In this document: piece after piece, positions 1-9,192 of the stretch
Layout of the letters: every line of letters begins with the position of its first letter
Numbering within the stretch: the first letter of the stretch is position 1
Made by a program: the position numbers and the translations under genes
Notes under the pieces: generated by a model
The model's database searches: none
Told to the model about the DNA's origin: nothing
Seen by the model: only the letters and a program-made list of their open reading frames with translations
From: Ktedonobacter racemifer
GTDB lineage: Bacteria; Chloroflexota; DTOL01; JACQYG01
Assembly: GCA_020723545.1 (NCBI GenBank)
Contig: DYIS01000004.1
Coordinates: forward strand, 1-29,879
Direction of reading: 5' to 3'
Length of the DNA stretch: 29,879 nt

Positions 1-70
1 TCCCGACACCTGTCCCCAGCCATGGGACCACCCGGCGCTGGATAACCTAGCCCGCCGGAGGGAACGAGCA

Positions 71-1428
<1,358 letters not shown>

Positions 1429-1441
<13 letters not shown>

Positions 1442-1662
1442 CCACAACACTGCCGAAAACCCCTCCCTTCCTGTGGATAAATGCCCCTTTTCCGTGGATA
1501 TCTTACCCATTTTGTGGACATCTTGACACCTTTAGGGGCCCTTTTAAGCCGAGTGACCACCATCTCCGGACATCTGGCCAAAGAGCAACCTGTCTCCCAC
1601 CCAGGAAAGGGCCCTCGTCCACCACTTCAACGTTTCCACGTGCCTACTGCTACTACGGCTAC
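1429..1662. other. Putative replication origin oriC (DnaA boxes plus DnaA-trios)
   Basis: Perfect box TGTGGATAA at 1472-1480; 2-mismatch boxes at 1429-1437, 1438-1446, 1493-1501 and 1513-1521. Degenerate box TTTCCACG, then TGCC, then CTA CTG CTA CTA CGG CTA (1644-1661), resembling the B. subtilis box-GC-trio unwinding element. Confidence 0.75.
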
Positions 1663-1704
1663 CTCTTAACCTCAGCAACATCTACCAGGCTCATTCTAGT
1701 CTCC

Positions 1705-1733
1705 TTGACAGGGTTCATCCAAGGTGATATGTT
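1705..1733 (+). promoter_or_regulatory. Sigma70-type promoter for the glycoside hydrolase pair
   Basis: TTGACA (1705-1710), 17-nt spacer, TGn-extended TATGTT (1728-1733). Confidence 0.55.
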
Positions 1734-1754
1734 AGACATGCCAGGCCAACCCTC

Positions 1755-3467
1755 TTGGAGAAATTGTCCGTGGCATTTCCTCGGGGAAACAATCACCGTC
1801 GAACGATCGCCTTTTTGGCAACTTTGCTGCTGCTCCTGCTGGCCAGCGGCATCGCTTTGCTGGCCTCGGGCCACCGGTCTTCCGGAAACAAGCAGGAGAT
1901 CAGGGCCCGGAGGATCCTGCCCAACACCGACGTGAACCCTTACGGGGCGAGCTTCTTCCTGACCCAGGAGGTGGAGGAGTGGAAGCTCAAGAAGACCTTG
2001 CAAATGGCCCAGGAGACCGGCATCGGCTGGGCCCGGCAGCAGTTTCCCTGGGTGGAGATAGAGCCTCAGAAGGGGAAATTCGTCGACGAACGGACGCAAA
2101 GATCCACCTGGGAGAAATTCGATCACATCGTGGAGCTCTGCGGCAGCTATGGGATAAGGGTGATCGCCCGCCTGGATGCGCCACCGGCGTGGGCCAGGAA
2201 CCAACCAGCCCTGGGAAGAGGGCCCCTGCGCGAACTATCTGACTTTGGTGATTTCGTGTATTCCTTTGTGAACCACTTCAAAGGCCGTATCCAGTATATC
2301 CAGCTTTGGAATGAGCCGAACCTGTGGTACGAGTGGGGCGATAATACGCCGGATGCCCGGCAGTACGTGGAGATGCTCAGGATCGGGTTTCAACGGGCCA
2401 AAGAAGCGGACCCCAATGTCTTCGTGGTCAGCGCACCCCTGGCTCAGACCCTGGAGCGTTCCCCTCGCTCCGTGCCCGACCTGGATTATCTGGAAGAGAT
2501 GTATCGAGAGGGGGCAAGGGAGTATTTCGACATCCTGGGGGCCAACGCCTTCGGCTTCGACCGGCCTCCGGACGACCCTCCCAGCCCGGATGCCTTGAAT
2601 TTTGCCCGGGTGGAATTGCTAAGGGAGATTATGGTGAGGAGCGGCGACGCCGACAAGCCGGTCTGGCTGGGTGAATACGGGTGGAACGCCTCGCCGGAGG
2701 GTTACCCACCCGAATGGTATATCTGGCGGCGGGTGAGCGAGGAACAGCAGGCCGAATATACGGCCAGGGGTATTCAGAAGGCCAGGGCGGAGTGGAACTG
2801 GGTGGGCGTGGTTAACATCTGGTACTTCCGCCAGGTGGGCCTCATACCGCCCGATCGATCTGAATACTATTTCCGCCTGGTGGATGTGGATTTCACCCCA
2901 CGCCTGGCCGCCCACGCCATCAAGAAAGATGCCAAATCCTTAAGCCTGGCCGGTCCGGGATATTACGAGGAGACAGCTTCGCCGGTGACGACGTCGGGGA
3001 GCTGGCAACGGCCGGTGGATGTCCATGCCAGCGGCGGGAGCTACCTGGCCACGAGCACCGCCGGGTCCAGCGTGGGGTTTTCGTTTTCCGGCGACACCTT
3101 GCGGCTGATAACGGCCAAGGGCCCCCAGGGAGGCACGCTGCAGGTAACGGTGGACGGGAGAGAGGCAAACGCCCTGCCCAGGGACAAGAAGGGCCGCGCC
3201 ATTCTGGACCTCTATAGCCCCATTCCTTCCTGGCAGGAGGGCGTGGTGGTGGCCCGAGGCCTGGGACCGGGGGAGCACAAGGCCCGCCTGACCGTCTCGG
3301 GCGACAGGAACCCGGCGGCCACCGGAAACGTGTGTGCCATCGATGCCCTGGAGGTCCAGGCCGGTGGGACGCCGGCCTGGTACTATTGGGCCTGGGGGCT
3401 GGTCCTGGCGGGGCTGGTCCTGGATGTGGGGCTCCTGTGGACATACCGGAAACGCCGGAGCACCTGA
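1755..3467 (+). CDS. Membrane-anchored clan GH-A (GH5/GH39-like) glycoside hydrolase with C-terminal beta-sandwich domain
   Basis: N-terminal hydrophobic segment, acid/base motif WNEP, nucleophile motif KPVWLGEYGW, beta-rich C-terminal domain, and C-terminal TM followed by RKRR. True start may be TTG 1764 or GTG 1770 (GGAG at 1757-1760). Confidence 0.8.
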   Translation: MEKLSVAFPRGNNHRRTIAFLATLLLLLLASGIALLASGHRSSGNKQEIRARRILPNTDVNPYGASFFLTQEVEEWKLKKTLQMAQETGIGWARQQFPWVEIEPQKGKFVDERTQRSTWEKFDHIVELCGSYGIRVIARLDAPPAWARNQPALGRGPLRELSDFGDFVYSFVNHFKGRIQYIQLWNEPNLWYEWGDNTPDARQYVEMLRIGFQRAKEADPNVFVVSAPLAQTLERSPRSVPDLDYLEEMYREGAREYFDILGANAFGFDRPPDDPPSPDALNFARVELLREIMVRSGDADKPVWLGEYGWNASPEGYPPEWYIWRRVSEEQQAEYTARGIQKARAEWNWVGVVNIWYFRQVGLIPPDRSEYYFRLVDVDFTPRLAAHAIKKDAKSLSLAGPGYYEETASPVTTSGSWQRPVDVHASGGSYLATSTAGSSVGFSFSGDTLRLITAKGPQGGTLQVTVDGREANALPRDKKGRAILDLYSPIPSWQEGVVVARGLGPGEHKARLTVSGDRNPAATGNVCAIDALEVQAGGTPAWYYWAWGLVLAGLVLDVGLLWTYRKRRST

Positions 3468-6139
3468 TGCCAAGAGGTGAGAGAAAAACCGCCCTCCTGG
3501 TCCTGGCCCTGCTGGCCGGCGCGCTGCTCATCACGTGGATATTGGGCGCGGTGGTGGCAGAGCACCGGGCCCGGACCCGAGGGGTAGGCAGCGGCTCAGG
3601 CCCGGCGCCGCGCCGCGAGGCCAACCTGTTTGGGGCCAACGTCTACTTGGATCAGGAGCGTTCCCGGGAGGAGCAGGAGCGCGTGCTGCGGCTGACCAGG
3701 GAGGCCGGGCTCTACTGGGTGCGCCAACGCTTCGCCTGGAAGGACATAGAGCCTTCTCCCGGGGAGTATTCCTGGGAGAAGTGGGATGCCATCGTGTACC
3801 TGGTCGGCCAATACGGCCTGGATCTCTTGGCGGTATTGGACACCTCTCCCACCTGGGCCCACAGCCGGGGCCCGGATACGTCTCCCCCCGATAGCCCCGG
3901 GGCCTTCGCCGATTTCGCCGGGCGCTTTGCCGAACGCTACCGAGGGCGGATCCTCCACTATCAGTTATGGGATGAGCCCAACATCTACCCTCACTGGGGG
4001 GAACGCTACGCCTCGCCCAGGGAATACCTGGAGCTGCTGAAGTTGGCTTACGCCAGGGTCAAGGCCGCCGATGGGCGCAATCGGGTGATCCTGGCCGGCC
4101 TGGCACCCACGGTCGAGCACAGCGAATGGAACCAGAGCGACGTGGACTACCTGGCCGAGTTGTACCGCCTGGGCGGCCGGAACTACTTCGACATCATCGC
4201 GGCAAAGCCCTACGGCTTCTGGACCGGGCCCGAGGATCGCCGGGTGGACCCGCGGATCTTGAACTTCTCCCGGGCGATACTGTTGCGGGAGACGGCGGTC
4301 AGGAACGGAGATGGCCAAAAGCCCATCTGGGCGGTGGAGTTCGGCTGGAACGCGTTGCCCGCAGCATGGCGCGGGCGACCATCGCCCTGGGGGTCGGATA
4401 GCGAGGAGCGACAGGCCCGACGCACCGCCCTGGCCATGGAGCGTGCCCGGGACGAATGGACCTGGCTGGGGGCCATGATGCTGCCGGGCCTGCACCTGCC
4501 GGGGGAGCCCGAGGACCCCCGGCAAGGGTTCGGGTTGGTGAATGGGGATTTCTCCCCTCGCCCGGCCTACCAGGCGGTGCAGGCCGTGGCCAGAGCCACC
4601 CAGGAGATGGCTGCCAGGCCCAGCGGGGTCAGCGAAAGCCAGCTACCGTATTACGGTGCGCTCTCGTTGCTAGCTGCAGCCCTGGCCCTCCTGTCGTGGC
4701 AATTGGTCCGGCAAGGGTCGCGCTTGCCGTGGGCTCGCTGGAGCGACTGGTACGTGAACCTGGGCCAGGGATGGGGAACGGCGCTCTTAGCGCTGGCTTT
4801 TCTTCTGTTTTACGGGCTCCCGTGGCCGCCCCTGAGCCTAGCTGCCCTGGTCTGGTTCGGGTATCTGGCCTATCTGCGGTTGGACCTGGCGCTCTACCTG
4901 ACGATCTTTTCCCTGCCATTTTACCTGTACCCCAAGACCTACGGCAGCATCGCCCTTTCCATACCTGAGATCACGGTGCTCTCGTGTAGCCTTTTGTGGC
5001 TCTGGAGGGGCCGGCGGACCATGGTCGGCCGCCTGCGCCACCCGGCGGCCGCGCTGAGGGGGCTCCTGTCAGCGATGAGACCCCGGGCCTTCCCCATGCT
5101 GGCCCTGGCATTCCTGGCCCTGGGGGTTCTCTCCCTGGGGGTCACCTCCAGCCTGCGCCTGAGCCTCCGGGAGCTGCGGGTGAACGTGCTGGAACCGGTG
5201 CTTTTGTACTTCCTCATGGTCAGCACCTGGCGAGAGGAGAGGCAGGTGGTCTCGGCAGTGAAGGCGTTGGTGGCTGGCGGGGCGGTGGTGGCGACGTACG
5301 GGCTATACCAGTGGCTCTTCACCGGGGACGTGATCACGGCCGAGGGGGTGCGGCGGATGCTGGCCACCTATCGCTCGCCCAATAACCTGGGGCTTTATCT
5401 GGAAAGGATAATCCCGTGGTCTCTGGCCCTGGCCTGGTCGGCCGGAAGGTGGCGGAAGATCTACCTTGGGGCACTGGGATCTCTGGGCCTGGCCCTGTTC
5501 CTGACCTTCTCGGTGGGCGCCTGGTTGGGGGCGGCCGGTGGCCTTTTTGCCGTGGGCCTGTTTCTTTTTAAAGGGAGGAAAGCCCTGGCCACCGTGCTGA
5601 TCCTGGGCCTCCTGGCAGGAGGCCTGGCGCTGCCCATCGTCAGGGTGGAGAGGGTGATCTCGCACCTGAGCTTCCGGCAAGAGACCACGACCTTTCTGAG
5701 GCTCCAGGTCTGGCAGGCGTCGGCGAACATGATCCGAGACCACCCACTGCTGGGCGTGGGGCTGGATGGCTTTTTGGAGCAGTACCGGACCAGGTACATC
5801 CGGCCCGAGGCCTGGAAGGAGCCGAATCTCTCCCATCCCCACAACCTGATCCTGGAGTTCTGGGTCAACCTTGGGGTGCCCGGAGTGGTGATCCTGGTCT
5901 TGTTCCTGTGGGGGTTCTACCGGCGGGCAAGCCATGTCTACCATGAGGTCCCCCCTGAGGGGGAGGGGCGGGCGATGCTCCTGGGCGCCATGGGCGCTAT
6001 GACCGCCGCGGTGGTCCACGGCCTAGTGGACCGTTTCTACTTCGGTGCCCCGGATCTGGCCTACGTCTTCTTTGTGACGCTGACGGTGGTGGAACTTTCG
6101 AGTTCCCGTAGGGCGCCGGAGACCGGGCCTCTCATCTAG
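3467..6139 (+). CDS. Fusion of a GH-A glycoside hydrolase domain and an O-antigen ligase (WaaL/Wzy_C)-like polytopic domain, about 890 aa
   Basis: Start reassigned to ATG 3467 (TGATG overlap with the upstream stop). WDEP and KPIWAVEFGW, then many TM helices with YRSPNNLGLYL, RLQVWQASANMIRDHPLLGVG, SHPHNLILEFW and HGLVD. Confidence 0.8.
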   Translation: MPRGERKTALLVLALLAGALLITWILGAVVAEHRARTRGVGSGSGPAPRREANLFGANVYLDQERSREEQERVLRLTREAGLYWVRQRFAWKDIEPSPGEYSWEKWDAIVYLVGQYGLDLLAVLDTSPTWAHSRGPDTSPPDSPGAFADFAGRFAERYRGRILHYQLWDEPNIYPHWGERYASPREYLELLKLAYARVKAADGRNRVILAGLAPTVEHSEWNQSDVDYLAELYRLGGRNYFDIIAAKPYGFWTGPEDRRVDPRILNFSRAILLRETAVRNGDGQKPIWAVEFGWNALPAAWRGRPSPWGSDSEERQARRTALAMERARDEWTWLGAMMLPGLHLPGEPEDPRQGFGLVNGDFSPRPAYQAVQAVARATQEMAARPSGVSESQLPYYGALSLLAAALALLSWQLVRQGSRLPWARWSDWYVNLGQGWGTALLALAFLLFYGLPWPPLSLAALVWFGYLAYLRLDLALYLTIFSLPFYLYPKTYGSIALSIPEITVLSCSLLWLWRGRRTMVGRLRHPAAALRGLLSAMRPRAFPMLALAFLALGVLSLGVTSSLRLSLRELRVNVLEPVLLYFLMVSTWREERQVVSAVKALVAGGAVVATYGLYQWLFTGDVITAEGVRRMLATYRSPNNLGLYLERIIPWSLALAWSAGRWRKIYLGALGSLGLALFLTFSVGAWLGAAGGLFAVGLFLFKGRKALATVLILGLLAGGLALPIVRVERVISHLSFRQETTTFLRLQVWQASANMIRDHPLLGVGLDGFLEQYRTRYIRPEAWKEPNLSHPHNLILEFWVNLGVPGVVILVLFLWGFYRRASHVYHEVPPEGEGRAMLLGAMGAMTAAVVHGLVDRFYFGAPDLAYVFFVTLTVVELSSSRRAPETGPLI

Positions 6140-6239: not shown

Positions 6240-6836
6240 TCAGGCCAGGTAGAAGGAGCGGGCGAAGTTGATAGCGATGCGGAAGAGCGGTTCAACTATT
6301 CCTTTCAGGGCAACGGTGGCCAAAAGCGCGGCAATCCCCCCGACCACGGCACCGCCCAGTATATCTGAGGGAAGGTGGACCCCGCAGTAGACCCTGGCAA
6401 ATGAGAAGAGCAAGGCGAGCAGAAGGAGCCCGGCGCCGGCGCGGCGATTGAATAGCCAAATGATCAGGGCGAAGGTAAAGGCCATGGCCGCAGGGTTGCT
6501 GGGGAACGAGGAATCGGTGGGCCGATAGTAGAGCAGGTTCACCGTCAAAGTGGCGAAGGGCCTGGGGCGGAAGTAGAGCCCGTTGTTGGCGGCGACGATA
6601 GCGGCGGACAGGCCCTGGGCCAGTATAGCGTAAAGCACTGCTCTTTGATTGGTCTTGCGCAGATGGGGATTGGCTCCGGAGAACCAGAGGGCCAGAAGCA
6701 CCAGGGACATGCTCACCGGGACAAAATACTCGTTGACCAGCAGCCGCATGAGGCCGTCCAGCCAGGGAGACCGGCCAACCAGTCCGTTAACCGCTTGGAA
6801 CAGGGCCCGGTCGAGCTCAGTTATCTCCGGGATCAT
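6240..6836 (-). CDS. PAP2-family phosphatase (BcrC/undecaprenyl-pyrophosphate phosphatase-like)
   Basis: Start reassigned to ATG 6836 (GAGAGGAAAG upstream). Motifs RPRPF, SFPSNP and ARVYCGVHLPSD; several TM helices. Confidence 0.8.
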   Translation of the reverse strand: MIPEITELDRALFQAVNGLVGRSPWLDGLMRLLVNEYFVPVSMSLVLLALWFSGANPHLRKTNQRAVLYAILAQGLSAAIVAANNGLYFRPRPFATLTVNLLYYRPTDSSFPSNPAAMAFTFALIIWLFNRRAGAGLLLLALLFSFARVYCGVHLPSDILGGAVVGGIAALLATVALKGIVEPLFRIAINFARSFYLA

Positions 6837-7386
6837 CGGTCTTTCCTCTCGCTTTCCTCGGCCTCCGGCCGCTAGCTCTGGTACACCTTCCAGGTGAAGC
6901 GAGGAAACACCTGGAAGGTGTACCAGGGAGAAGAGAGATCCACCACCCATACGCGAAAAGGCGCCTGGCCCGGGCGGCGGGGAGGCGCAGGGGGGCCCGA
7001 AGGAGCTGGAAATAGCTGACCCTTTTCAAGGCGTCCAGGCCAGCCGGCGGGGGACCGGGCGGGTTAGCCTGGGTCGGCGGGCGCGGGGACCGGGGTTGGC
7101 GGTTCACCAGCGAACTTAAGGCCAGGGTGATCGAGATGGCCAGGAGGCAGCTCAGGGAAAAGAAAAAGATGAGCTGTGTGCCCTCCAGGCCGGGCACGTT
7201 CCGGTCAGCGGAGGAGAAAAACCAGTAGTAGGAGACAGAAATGGTGAGAAGGCCGGCCAGGGAGGAGGCCCTGGACCTGGCCGGGAAGAAGAAGAGGCCC
7301 TGGAGGCCATAGCGAGCAGCCACCAGTTGCAGGGTACCCAGGGCGCTGAGGGTGACGAAGATCATGTAGGCAGGCTCGATTGGCAT
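6817..7386 (-). CDS. Hypothetical membrane protein (about 3 TM) with a low-complexity C-terminal tail
   Basis: GGAGG RBS, hydrophobic segments, overlaps the PAP2 start; the last ~40 aa read through an inverted repeat. Confidence 0.65.
   Translation of the reverse strand: MPIEPAYMIFVTLSALGTLQLVAARYGLQGLFFFPARSRASSLAGLLTISVSYYWFFSSADRNVPGLEGTQLIFFFSLSCLLAISITLALSSLVNRQPRSPRPPTQANPPGPPPAGLDALKRVSYFQLLRAPLRLPAARARRLFAYGWWISLLPGTPSRCFLASPGRCTRASGRRPRKARGKTDDPGDN
6878..6926. repeat. Perfect 19-bp inverted repeat with 11-nt spacer (REP-like hairpin)
   Basis: CTGGTACACCTTCCAGGTG (6878-6896) and CACCTGGAAGGTGTACCAG (6908-6926). Confidence 0.9.
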
Positions 7387-7722: not shown

Positions 7723-8142
7723 ATGTACAAGCACATCTTGTGTGCCACACGAGGTGGGGAAAACTCGGAGAAGACCGAGGAGAGGGCTATCAGGCTAGCT
7801 CGGGAGAACCAGGCGGGCCTGACGTTTCTGTATGCGGTTGATCCAGCCTTCGCCCAGGACCCTCGGAACGAACCAGGCCCGATGAGTGAGCCGGAGGGCC
7901 CCCATTGGCTAGGCGAACTGGTGCTGGAGATGGCGGTGCGGGTGGCCGAGAGACAAGGGGTTCAGGCCCAGCAGGAACTGCGGCAGGGGGAGGTGTTTGG
8001 CGAGATCAAGGAGTATCTGGCCCATCACCCGGAGGTGGATCTCCTGATGATGGGCGCGCCGGTGGGCGAGGTGAAGAACCATTTCAGCGACTTCGTAGGT
8101 GAGGTGGTGGCCAGCGGCAGAGAGGTCCTGATCGTAGAGTGA
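7723..8142 (+). CDS. Universal stress protein (UspA family)
   Basis: MYKHILCAT start, LTFLYAVD strand, GEVFGEI and DLLMMG motifs; 139 aa. Confidence 0.88.
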   Translation: MYKHILCATRGGENSEKTEERAIRLARENQAGLTFLYAVDPAFAQDPRNEPGPMSEPEGPHWLGELVLEMAVRVAERQGVQAQQELRQGEVFGEIKEYLAHHPEVDLLMMGAPVGEVKNHFSDFVGEVVASGREVLIVE

Positions 8143-8154
8143 TGAGGCCTGGGA

Positions 8155-8331
8155 ATGGAACTGGAGAAACGGCTGAGGAAGGTCGTCCTGGCGGTCCGGC
8201 GAAGCGATGGGTCCATGATCAATAATCCGAGCGCAGCGACGCAGTTGCAGCCAGGAGACAAGCTGATAGCCATTGGCACCAACAGCCAATTGAAGGCCCT
8301 GGCGCAAATGGTCAGGGTCACAAGGCCGTAG
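8155..8331 (+). CDS. Small stand-alone TrkA-C (RCK_C) domain protein, 58 aa (below the ORF-track cutoff)
   Basis: Manual translation MELEKRLRKVVLAVRRSDGSMINNPSAATQLQPGDKLIAIGTNSQLKALAQMVRVTRP matches the RCK_C pattern VLAVRR..G..I.NP.....LQPGD.L..IG. Confidence 0.7.
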   Translation: MELEKRLRKVVLAVRRSDGSMINNPSAATQLQPGDKLIAIGTNSQLKALAQMVRVTRP

Positions 8332-8349
8332 TGGGTGGGGAGGCGACGA

Positions 8350-9192
8350 TTGTCCGACCAGCGACCCATTGGGGTCTTCGACTCCGGGGTGGGCGGCCTC
8401 TCGGTGTGGCGGGAACTGGCGGCCCAACTTCCCCGGGAGAGCACGATCTACTTCGCCGACAGCGCCAATTGTCCATATGGCCCCCGGTCCAACCAGGAGA
8501 TCCAGGCCCTGGCCCAGGGCATCGCGGGCTTCCTGGCAGCGGAGGGGGCCAAGCTGATCGTGGTGGCCTGCAACACGGCGTCGGCGGCCAGCCTGGCTTA
8601 TCTTCGCTCCCTCTTCTCGGTGCCCATAGTGGGGATGGTGCCGGCGGTGAAGCCGGCGGCGGCGATGACGGCCAGCAAGCGCGTTGCGGTGATCGGCACC
8701 GCAGCCACCATCCAGGGACAGGTCTTCGCTGAGCTGGTGGAGCGTTTCGCTAACGGGGTGGAGGTGTACACAAAAGCGTGTCCCGGGCTGGTGCAGCAGG
8801 TGGAGAGGGGAGAACTGGAAGGTCCGGAGACACTCAGTCTCCTGCAGCGATACCTGGATCCGCTTCTGGCCCAGGGGATCGATACGCTGGTCCTGGGTTG
8901 TACACATTATCCCTTCTTGGAACCGGCCATTAGACGGGTGGTGGGACCTGATGTTATCATAATCGACCCCAGCCCTGCGGTGGCCAGGCAAACGGGAAGG
9001 GTTCTGGAGGAAAAAGGGTTGCAGGCCCATCTCGAAAGCCAGGCCGAGCATTTATTTTATACAACCGGCGACCCGAACCGTTTCCGTGAGATGATTCATA
9101 CCCTGCTCGGCATCTCTCCCGCGGTGCACCGGGCCGTGTGGCAGGGGCCTGGATTGAAACCGGTGGGCCCAACTGACTCGACAGACCATTGA
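8350..9192 (+). CDS. murI: Glutamate racemase
   Basis: DSGVGG, YGPRS, ACNTAS and VLGCTHYP motifs; TTG 8350 chosen because GGGGAGG lies 6 nt upstream. Confidence 0.95.
   Translation: MSDQRPIGVFDSGVGGLSVWRELAAQLPRESTIYFADSANCPYGPRSNQEIQALAQGIAGFLAAEGAKLIVVACNTASAASLAYLRSLFSVPIVGMVPAVKPAAAMTASKRVAVIGTAATIQGQVFAELVERFANGVEVYTKACPGLVQQVERGELEGPETLSLLQRYLDPLLAQGIDTLVLGCTHYPFLEPAIRRVVGPDVIIIDPSPAVARQTGRVLEEKGLQAHLESQAEHLFYTTGDPNRFREMIHTLLGISPAVHRAVWQGPGLKPVGPTDSTDH

Follow-up and report, generated by a model that had tools for sequence, protein, structure and literature searches.

A PslG-like glycosidase encoded beside a PslG-like barrel fused to a WaaL-type membrane transferase: a predicted surface-polysaccharide gene pair of the Chloroflexota

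The first 29,879 nucleotides of contig DYIS01000004.1 (assembly GCA_020723545.1, Ktedonobacter racemifer, Chloroflexota), the whole stretch of DNA analyzed here and referred to below as the window, contain two overlapping genes on the forward strand whose predicted products share a glycosidase fold. Gene 1 encodes a PslG-like glycoside hydrolase anchored in the membrane at both ends, and gene 2 encodes a related barrel that continues within a single polypeptide into a membrane domain of the Wzy_C/WaaL superfamily (Table 1). Our preferred interpretation, to which we assign a probability of about 0.6, is that gene 1 is the hydrolase of a surface-polysaccharide pathway and that the fused barrel of gene 2 serves the transferase chiefly by binding glycan. 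The new observation behind this interpretation is a contrast between two lineages of the same domain, a stand-alone lineage in which the catalytic glutamates are always intact and a fused lineage that has lost them repeatedly.

Gene 1 is 570 residues long when read from the TTG at 1755 to its TGA at 3465-3467; a GTG at 1770 is the likelier start and would give 565 residues, since it has a GGAG 8 nt upstream and the homolog P0123, at 90% identity, is of that length. Gene 2 opens with an ATG whose first letter is also the last letter of the gene 1 stop codon, and a GGAG lies at 3457-3460. In a genome of the same genus (G025), the junction GGAGCACCTGATG is identical to that of the window, and an uninterrupted frame of 973 codons, the same length as the window's, encodes a full-length ortholog 91% identical to gene 2. 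The barrels of gene 1 and gene 2 are paralogs, 39% identical to each other (E 5e-73).

A word-index search with gene 2 returned 217 homolog clusters, the best 120 of which match at E < 1e-140 and are 870-1120 residues long. These fusion homologs derive from many independent assemblies of Anaerolineae and Chloroflexota bins and, where they have been named at all, are called "O-antigen ligase family protein". Across the phylum, 246 of 401 sampled genomes match at least one part of gene 2, and in single-contig genomes the match is held in uninterrupted frames of about 1000-1180 codons, those of G245, G237, G293 and G365 being about 1050-1180 codons long. Several clusters in the ESM Atlas, mostly from Chloroflexota, have the same architecture of barrel plus Wzy_C. 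We also fetched 20 loci from other species around fusion homologs, and 17 of these hold barrel and Wzy_C in one frame. Some fusions are longer (about 1000-1150 residues) and carry a beta-sandwich of the gene 1 type between barrel and membrane domain, while unfused orthologs of the membrane domain begin at approximately residue 430 of gene 2.

If the fusion were an artefact of assembly or gene calling, two genes would have been joined by a sequencing error or the open reading frame would not be a single protein. The source genome is indeed a fragmented metagenome bin (2.57 Mb in 322 contigs, 84% complete), and unfused arrangements of gene 1 and a Wzy_C gene do occur at two of the fetched loci (L046 and L047). 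The explanation is nevertheless scarcely credible given the 217 clusters from independent assemblies, the uninterrupted frames in single-contig genomes, the fetched loci and the shared junction in the same-genus genome, and the AlphaFold2 (AF2) model treats gene 2 as one confident chain. We rejected it on these grounds; the fusion is genuine and widespread in the phylum. Our literature searches for a fusion of barrel and Wzy_C found no paper describing it. The architecture amounts to known kinds of domain in an uncharacterized combination that databases already list with generic labels.

PslG, which the initial annotation of this locus did not name, is the nearest known relative of the barrels. 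In the AF2 model of gene 2, which was built on 53 homologs (predicted local distance difference test score, pLDDT, 90.1; predicted template modeling score, pTM, 0.80), the best fold match of the barrel is PslG structure 5bx9 (Foldseek E 1.8e-15), and PslG aligns to residues 30-396 with a VIA Z of 33.9 at 22-23% identity. The next folds are a Bacteroides entry of glycoside hydrolase (GH) family 39, 5jvk (Z 31.8), and then GH1 enzymes, which step down to Z 28. PslG is also the top profile match of the fusion family (E 6.7e-28), in an alignment that pairs WdEPN with the WNEPN of PslG and avEfGW with STEWGW, placing the E170 and E291 motifs over those of Glu165 and Glu276. In PslG, Glu165 is the acid/base and Glu276 the nucleophile, the latter trapped by a covalent probe (PMC11912335). 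More direct searches were less informative: Pfam gave a weak GH42 N-terminal match for the gene 2 barrel (33.3 bits), the Pfam scan of genes 1 and 2 matched Glyco_hydro_39 (PF01229) in neither barrel, and a single-sequence search against the PDB recovered neither PslG nor WaaL, so that profiles and folds were needed. The model and the profile together indicate a GH39/PslG-like (beta/alpha)8 fold of clan GH-A.

A search with gene 1 finds at least 1898 homologs (E <= 1e-20), and the Joint Genome Institute (JGI) has named some of them "PslG". The best PDB sequence match of gene 1 is again the GH39 entry 5jvk, and in a joint alignment of the barrels its catalytic motifs fall in the same columns as those of gene 2. 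Pfam gave a GH42 N-terminal match below the cut-off (20.1 bits). The assignment of the gene 1 barrel as PslG/GH39-like runs through its identity to the gene 2 barrel and the match to 5jvk.

For the membrane half of gene 2 the family is clear. Pfam Wzy_C (PF04932) matches residues 672-811 with 82.1 bits against a cut-off of 31.7 (E 4.7e-23). When the C-terminal half was modeled alone (pLDDT 89.4, pTM 0.89), WaaL was the sole strong fold match (Foldseek 7tpg_B, E 3.7e-8, TM 0.68), with 380 residues aligned to residues 6-407 of WaaL 7tpj_B at VIA Z 23.3; the SEDS (shape, elongation, division and sporulation) polymerases FtsW and RodA came second, at Z 13.5-15. The full-length family profile A1 also finds WaaL by sequence (E 1e-7), setting RLQVW over VRLKIW and SHPHN over EHAHN, and a profile of the C-terminal half alone (A2) gave no useful match among PDB sequences. 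A regular expression located the motif H792-N-x9-G803-x2-G806 at residues 792-806, an instance of the H[NSQ]x9Gxx[GTY] motif common to WaaL and PilO/PglL enzymes. Threshold, fold and motifs place the domain in the Wzy_C/WaaL superfamily, and we have not filed it as either WaaL proper or IctB because it missed both equivalog cut-offs, those of NCBIfam RfaL (NF012031; 25.3 versus 277 bits) and IctB (TIGR00947; 73.4 versus 366.4 bits).

The two barrel lineages differ sharply in how they treat their catalytic residues. We compared a fused set, the best 120 hits of gene 2, with a stand-alone set consisting of gene 1 and its 120 best homologs. By alignment, 71 fusion homologs keep both glutamates and 48 lack one of them; the acid/base position is occupied by Gln in 22, Asn in 3, Asp in 2, Ala in 1 and Ser in 1, and the nucleophile position by Ala in 13 and by Thr, Gly, His, Ser or Asn in 8. 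On a tree of the fusion proteins the switch between intact and lost states requires at least 16 changes. In the stand-alone set, both glutamates and the entire WNEPN motif are invariant (121 of 121). Pocket and transferase residues are kept: W168, P171, N172, Y187, G250, W288, G293 and W294 in the barrel, and R571, R630, H851 and D855 in the membrane domain, are invariant in the fused set bar a gap or a single sequence, and R745, W749, H790 and H792 are invariant in 120 of 120. We read this as selection in the fused lineage that keeps the sugar pocket and the transferase and not hydrolysis. Because 48 of 120 fused barrels have lost a glutamate versus none of 121 stand-alone ones, gene 1 would be the conserved cutter and the fused domain more likely a glycan binder.

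On a tree of 268 barrels the stand-alone and fused states interchange only 2 times, and so the two are old paralogs and not the product of repeated recent fusions. Among the fetched loci, 5 of 17 fused barrels lack a glutamate, and both are present in 10 of 11 stand-alone copies. Gene 2 of the window belongs to a small clade in which both are retained (P0007, P0010, P0011, P0013 and P0032), and its sister clade (P0004-P0009, at approximately 50% identity) has Gln at the acid/base position. We also considered the idea that the fused copy decays only beside an intact stand-alone copy, and rejected it, since no stand-alone copy accompanies 4 of the 5 decayed fusions in the stretches that we fetched, and at one locus (L043) the situation is reversed.

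Hydropathy gives gene 1 one helix at each end, and gene 2 a single N-terminal helix, then 360 soluble residues and finally an extended polytopic domain. The ectodomain of gene 1 would lie outside, since its last helix is preceded by acidic residues and followed by RKRR, in keeping with the positive-inside rule. In the 120 fusion proteins, the N-terminal tail of gene 2 has a net charge of +1.8 versus +0.7 after the helix, the loop 415-433 that follows helix 393-417 has 4.0 Lys plus Arg and a net charge of +2.8, and the loop 520-541 likewise has +2.8; this family-wide charge bias would make all three of these segments cytoplasmic. RodA helix 1, whose N-terminus is inside, aligns from residue 536, and residue 467 is paired with residue 6 of WaaL; these two alignments fix the orientation of the core and predict an outside position for the 735-793 loop. 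Parity between the two cytoplasmic loops then requires four spans (434-450, 454-470, 472-489 and 499-522), and DSSP of both models breaks the helix at R471. This gives a model of 16 spans in which barrel and Arg/His loop are both predicted to lie on the outer face. The start of unfused orthologs near residue 430 fits the joining of a protein of the gene 1 type, with both ends inside, to a transferase with its N-terminus inside.

Much of this bears out the initial annotation, which was made by inspection of the letters and open reading frames. It had described a translationally coupled pair (the TGATG overlap recurs in the same-genus genome), both catalytic glutamates in each glycosidase domain (E187/E307 and E170/E291), membrane tethering of both products (as the hydropathy helices indicate) and WaaL-type Arg and His motifs (which align with those of solved WaaL) in a Wzy_C/WaaL domain, now recognized well above the Pfam cut-off and by fold. 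Its caution that the fusion might be an assembly artefact can be set aside, and the architecture is, as it had supposed, uncharacterized and present under generic database names in other Chloroflexota. The topology proposed above would put both active sites on the outer face, the arrangement that the annotation had suggested checking.

Beyond what that annotation described, the pair stands first in a larger conserved glycan cluster. At 9 of the 20 loci, representing at least six families, an NAD-dependent epimerase/dehydratase gene comes after the fusion gene (in two cases after an unfused ortholog). Behind it stand most or all of the following: a second Wzy_C protein, an LPG_synthase_TM protein and two or three family 4 glycosyltransferases (GT4); one of the nine loci is without the Wzy_C paralog and one without the LPG_synthase_TM protein. 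The second Wzy_C is 26-31% identical to the membrane half of gene 2. In 9 loci the gene immediately upstream of the fusion is a stand-alone gene 1 ortholog, and the fusion occurs without an adjoining gene 1 in 7. At L046 (8039-11251, reverse strand) and L047 (7657-10746, forward strand), a gene 1 ortholog is followed by an unfused membrane-domain ortholog, 44-45% identical, whose ATG stands directly after the stop codon in the same frame. We considered read-through of this in-frame stop and rejected it, since a stop with an immediate ATG is ordinary tight operon spacing; the unfused ortholog represents a natural barrel-less transferase.

The LPG_synthase_TM protein, which resembles the transmembrane domain of MprF (L029:12468-13532 and L047:13105-14148), is the only flippase candidate that we saw in the cluster; we noticed no Wzx and no Wzz/PCP (polysaccharide co-polymerase) gene in the cluster loci, and no acceptor-protein candidate is conserved beside the fusion gene in the sampled loci. 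At two other loci, L024 (P0097) and L027 (P0217), the fusion lies beside a wall-elongation cluster, mreBCD-pbp2-minCDE(-rodA), in L027 together with a gene 1 ortholog, and neighbors of this type hint at a link between the fusion and wall growth.

In the source genome the conserved cluster is split over other contigs. Contig C15 carries an epimerase 72% identical to that of G290, a Wzy_C paralog and a family 2 glycosyltransferase, and contig C193 carries three GT4 genes. No LPG_synthase_TM ortholog was found in this incomplete genome at E < 1e-10. A second glycan cluster on C293 comprises UDP-glucose dehydrogenase, a WecA-like Glycos_transf_4 protein, a Wzy_C protein with tetratricopeptide repeats (TPR) and further GT4 genes; the Wzy_C-TPR protein (L050:2528-6091, reverse strand) is 1187 residues long with the repeats at its C-terminus. 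Six barrel paralogs and four Wzy_C proteins are present in this genome altogether, and two of the four Wzy_C proteins carry an extra domain. The four further PslG-like barrels are on C296, C32, C319 and C96; two of these matches contain an in-frame TGA, and that on C319 lies in an open reading frame of approximately 800 residues.

Table 1. Coordinates in the window and basis of the features of genes 1 and 2
Feature	Position	Strand	Basis
Gene 1, predicted PslG-like (GH39-like, clan GH-A) glycoside hydrolase with two membrane anchors and C-terminal beta-sandwich	1755..3467	+	Open reading frame, translation
Gene 1 N-terminal transmembrane anchor, residues 18-36	1806..1862	+	Hydropathy peak 2.7
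Gene 1 predicted (beta/alpha)8 catalytic barrel, ~residues 56-395	1920..2939	+	39% identity to gene 2 barrel
Gene 1 putative acid/base E187 (WNEPN)	2313-2315	+	Motif
Gene 1 putative nucleophile E307 (GEYGW)	2673-2675	+	Motif
Gene 1 beta-sandwich-like module, CE2_N-like, ~residues 396-540	2940..3374	+	Pfam PF17996, E 1.9e-4, below cut-off
Gene 1 C-terminal transmembrane anchor, residues 545-563, then predicted cytoplasmic tail YRKRRST	3387..3443	+	Hydropathy, sequence
TGATG stop/start overlap coupling genes 1 and 2	3465..3469	+	Sequence
Gene 2, PslG-like ectodomain fused to WaaL-type Wzy_C membrane transferase, 890 residues	3467..6139	+	Pfam, AF2 model, homologs
Gene 2 N-terminal transmembrane anchor, residues 12-30	3500..3556	+	Hydropathy 2.59
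Gene 2 PslG-like barrel, ~residues 46-385	3602..4621	+	Foldseek, VIA, profile
Gene 2 E170 (WDEPN)	3974-3976	+	Motif
Gene 2 E291 (VEFGW)	4337-4339	+	Motif
Three linker transmembrane helices (393-417, 434-450, 454-470), ectodomain to WaaL core	4643..4876	+	DSSP of both models
WaaL-like 12-helix core, ~residues 467-880	4865..6106	+	VIA, Foldseek
Large loop 735-793, predicted extracytoplasmic	5669..5845	+	WaaL alignment, Pfam Wzy_C 672-811
Gene 2 R745 (RLQVW)	5699-5701	+	Motif
Gene 2 H790/H792 (SHPHN)	5834-5842	+	Motif

In the window, the pair is preceded by dnaA (2-1441) and followed by a convergent PAP2 phosphatase gene (6240-6950, reverse strand), and the remainder of the window is unrelated. 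We considered the PAP2 phosphatase as a partner for recycling undecaprenyl diphosphate and rejected it, no homolog being present in the 20 fusion loci at E < 1e-8. Two open reading frames on the reverse strand (6817-7386, 189 residues, and 7909-9051, 380 residues) have no Pfam match. At three other loci (L029, L047 and that of P0008) dnaA is likewise a neighbor of the orthologous operon. Just 3' of dnaA in the window are three sites resembling DnaA boxes, TGTGGATAA (1472-1480), CGTGGATAT (1493-1501) and TGTGGACAT (1513-1521), spaced 20-21 bp apart, and the cumulative GC skew, in a profile over 1-3000, is lowest near 2 kb. The replication origin is probably an immediate neighbor of the glycan operon.

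Based on these features, genes 1 and 2 are probably the first two genes of a pathway by which Chloroflexota assemble a surface polysaccharide, drawing on a lipid-linked glycan of the undecaprenyl-diphosphate type. Gene 1 would be a PslG-like retaining endoglycanase of clan GH-A, tethered by its two terminal helices to the outer face of the cytoplasmic membrane, where, by analogy with the action of PslG on Psl, it could trim, release or clear polymer. The core of gene 2 would take a lipid-linked glycan on the same face and pass it either to a growing chain, as a polymerase, or to a final acceptor, as a ligase; such a donor is suggested indirectly by the WecA-like Glycos_transf_4 and GT4 genes elsewhere in the genome, and either of the cluster's two Wzy_C proteins might polymerize while the other ligates. 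The ectodomain of gene 2, an ancient paralog of gene 1, would keep its pocket and hold the polysaccharide, as acceptor or product, near the transferase. Hydrolysis by this barrel would be optional, and with both glutamates present in gene 2 some activity may remain.

The initial annotation had instead proposed a bifunctional cut-and-ligate system, in which both barrels would be active retaining glycosidases or transglycosylases in this organism and the fused barrel would trim, size or transglycosylate each chain right after transfer by its own Wzy_C domain. The intact E170 and E291 of gene 2 and its nearest small clade speak for this, as do the 71 fusion homologs that keep both residues, the match between the pocket residues of the fused and stand-alone lineages and the identity of PslG as the closest fold. 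However, the 16 or more changes between intact and lost states in the fused lineage, when there are none among the 121 stand-alone proteins, argue that hydrolysis is not what is being selected. The Gln at the acid/base position of the sister clade also counts against the proposal. We consider the cut-and-ligate proposal rather unlikely as it was worded. What stands of it is an extracytoplasmic glycan-processing pair that includes a genuine transferase fusion; what does not is conserved hydrolysis by the fused barrel, since a tethered hydrolase conserved for trimming is hard to reconcile with the loss of one glutamate in 48 of 120 fusions and with Gln in the nearest relatives outside the window gene's own clade. 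Another way to read the pair is as protein O-glycosylation, with gene 2 an O-oligosaccharyltransferase of the PglL/WsaB type acting on S-layer or sheath proteins and the barrel recognizing the glycan. The motif shared by WaaL and PilO/PglL enzymes is present in gene 2, Wzy_C enzymes of Gram-positive bacteria glycosylate S-layer proteins, and to our knowledge Chloroflexota generally lack the lipid A-core that would otherwise serve as acceptor. On the other hand, no O-oligosaccharyltransferase appears among the strong fold matches (although it is uncertain whether the set of solved structures included any), no acceptor-protein candidate is conserved beside the gene in the sampled loci, and the second Wzy_C of the cluster fits a polymerase and ligase pair equally well; this reading strikes us as improbable. 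Far more remote is a non-glycan role as an IctB-like protein. IctB, itself a Wzy_C homolog, was once proposed as a bicarbonate transporter, and gene 2 does match TIGR00947 at E 1.7e-20, but at 73.4 bits it falls well below the 366.4-bit cut-off, and both the PslG-like domain and the glycan gene neighborhood point to polysaccharide chemistry.

Several observations weigh against our own interpretation of gene 1 as the hydrolase and the fused barrel as mainly a binder. Gene 2 and its small clade retain both glutamates, so the fused barrel may be an active hydrolase in this organism. The two lineages were sampled unevenly, the gene 1 set being closer (48-60% identity) than the gene 2 set (35-54%). 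At L043 (12453-14219, reverse strand) the stand-alone barrel has lost its nucleophile (IWLSAYGW) and the adjacent fused barrel keeps both residues. The placement of barrel and transferase on the same face draws on charge bias, helix parity and homology rather than on geometry, and it demands that 454-470 and 472-489 be separate spans with only the single-residue break at R471 between them. Finally, no glycosyltransferase or flippase is encoded among the genes of the window, and half of the sampled loci hold the fusion without the cluster.

A tentative extension, for which the odds are against us, is that the fused barrel acts as a built-in polysaccharide handler in place of proteins that are separate elsewhere. 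It might keep the acceptor or growing chain in position for the transferase and in this way set chain length or attachment site, in a cluster in which no Wzz/PCP gene was seen. More boldly, and by analogy with enzyme engineering, in which the same substitutions of Glu convert retaining glycosidases into glycosynthases and thioglycoligases, the barrels of some lineages, with the nucleophile replaced by Ala, Gly or Ser or the acid/base by Gln, could themselves form glycosidic bonds from an activated lipid-diphosphate donor.

Many exopolysaccharide pathways, those for Psl, Pel, alginate and cellulose among them, include a hydrolase or lyase, and what it contributes to synthesis is still debated. 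A phylum-wide covalent fusion of a PslG-type fold to a Wzy/WaaL transferase provides genetic evidence that both work on one chain at one place, and the contrast between lineages separates binding from cutting, roles that cannot be told apart where, as with PslG, there is a single copy. Chloroflexota and Anaerolineae, filamentous bacteria that abound in sludge, sediments and mats, are generally without classical lipopolysaccharide, and the conserved cluster offers a handle on their poorly known envelope glycans.

Among characterized systems, PslG of Pseudomonas aeruginosa (CAZy GH39; 5bx9, 4zn2 and 9g17), the endo-beta-glucanase of the Psl cluster, is closest to the barrels in fold and profile, with NEP acid/base and E-x-G-W nucleophile motifs that align with Glu165 and Glu276. 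Like genes 1 and 2, PslG has an N-terminal membrane anchor, and the likeness extends to a periplasmic or, for genes 1 and 2, predicted outer-face site and to being encoded with a Wzy-type pathway. In the Psl pathway, an endoglycanase of the periplasm, PslG, and a Wzy-type polymerase act on the same polymer (PMC13434223, PMC11912335), a pairing that the Chloroflexota system would resemble. The Chloroflexota proteins differ in that gene 1 adds a C-terminal anchor and a larger beta-sandwich, the gene 2 barrel is covalently joined to its transferase (the Psl pathway has PslG and the polymerase PslJ as two proteins), a catalytic glutamate is often missing from the fused lineage, and Pfam PF01229 is unmatched.

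The membrane half of gene 2 is most like WaaL of Cupriavidus metallidurans (7tpg/7tpj), with which it shares the twelve-helix core, the Pfam Wzy_C domain and the Arg/His motifs in a large loop, predicted in gene 2 to be on the outer face. Identity is only 14-18%, however, gene 2 adds four helices and a 340-residue N-terminal ectodomain, and the acceptor must differ if lipid A-core is generally lacking in the phylum; gene 2 may be a polymerase and not a ligase. The Wzy polymerases PslJ and WzyE provide the other obvious comparison, since they use lipid-linked repeat units at the outer face and are encoded with GT4, epimerase and hydrolase genes, and the two Wzy_C paralogs of the cluster are what would be expected of a polymerase plus a ligase. 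Unlike Wzx/Wzy pathways, the cluster has no Wzz/PCP or Wzx that we could see. The Wzy_C-TPR protein of contig C293 likewise attaches a non-membrane domain to a Wzy_C core, but its repeats are C-terminal whereas the glycosidase fold of gene 2 is N-terminal. Finally, the GH18 chitinase-like lectins are catalytically dead glycosidase folds that serve as lectins, and the fused barrels resemble them in keeping the pocket while the catalytic acid is replaced, by Gln and others, which would permit binding without cleavage. Those lectins belong to another clan and other organisms, whereas in the Chloroflexota the loss is scattered among members of a single orthologous lineage, in a domain that shares its polypeptide with a transferase.

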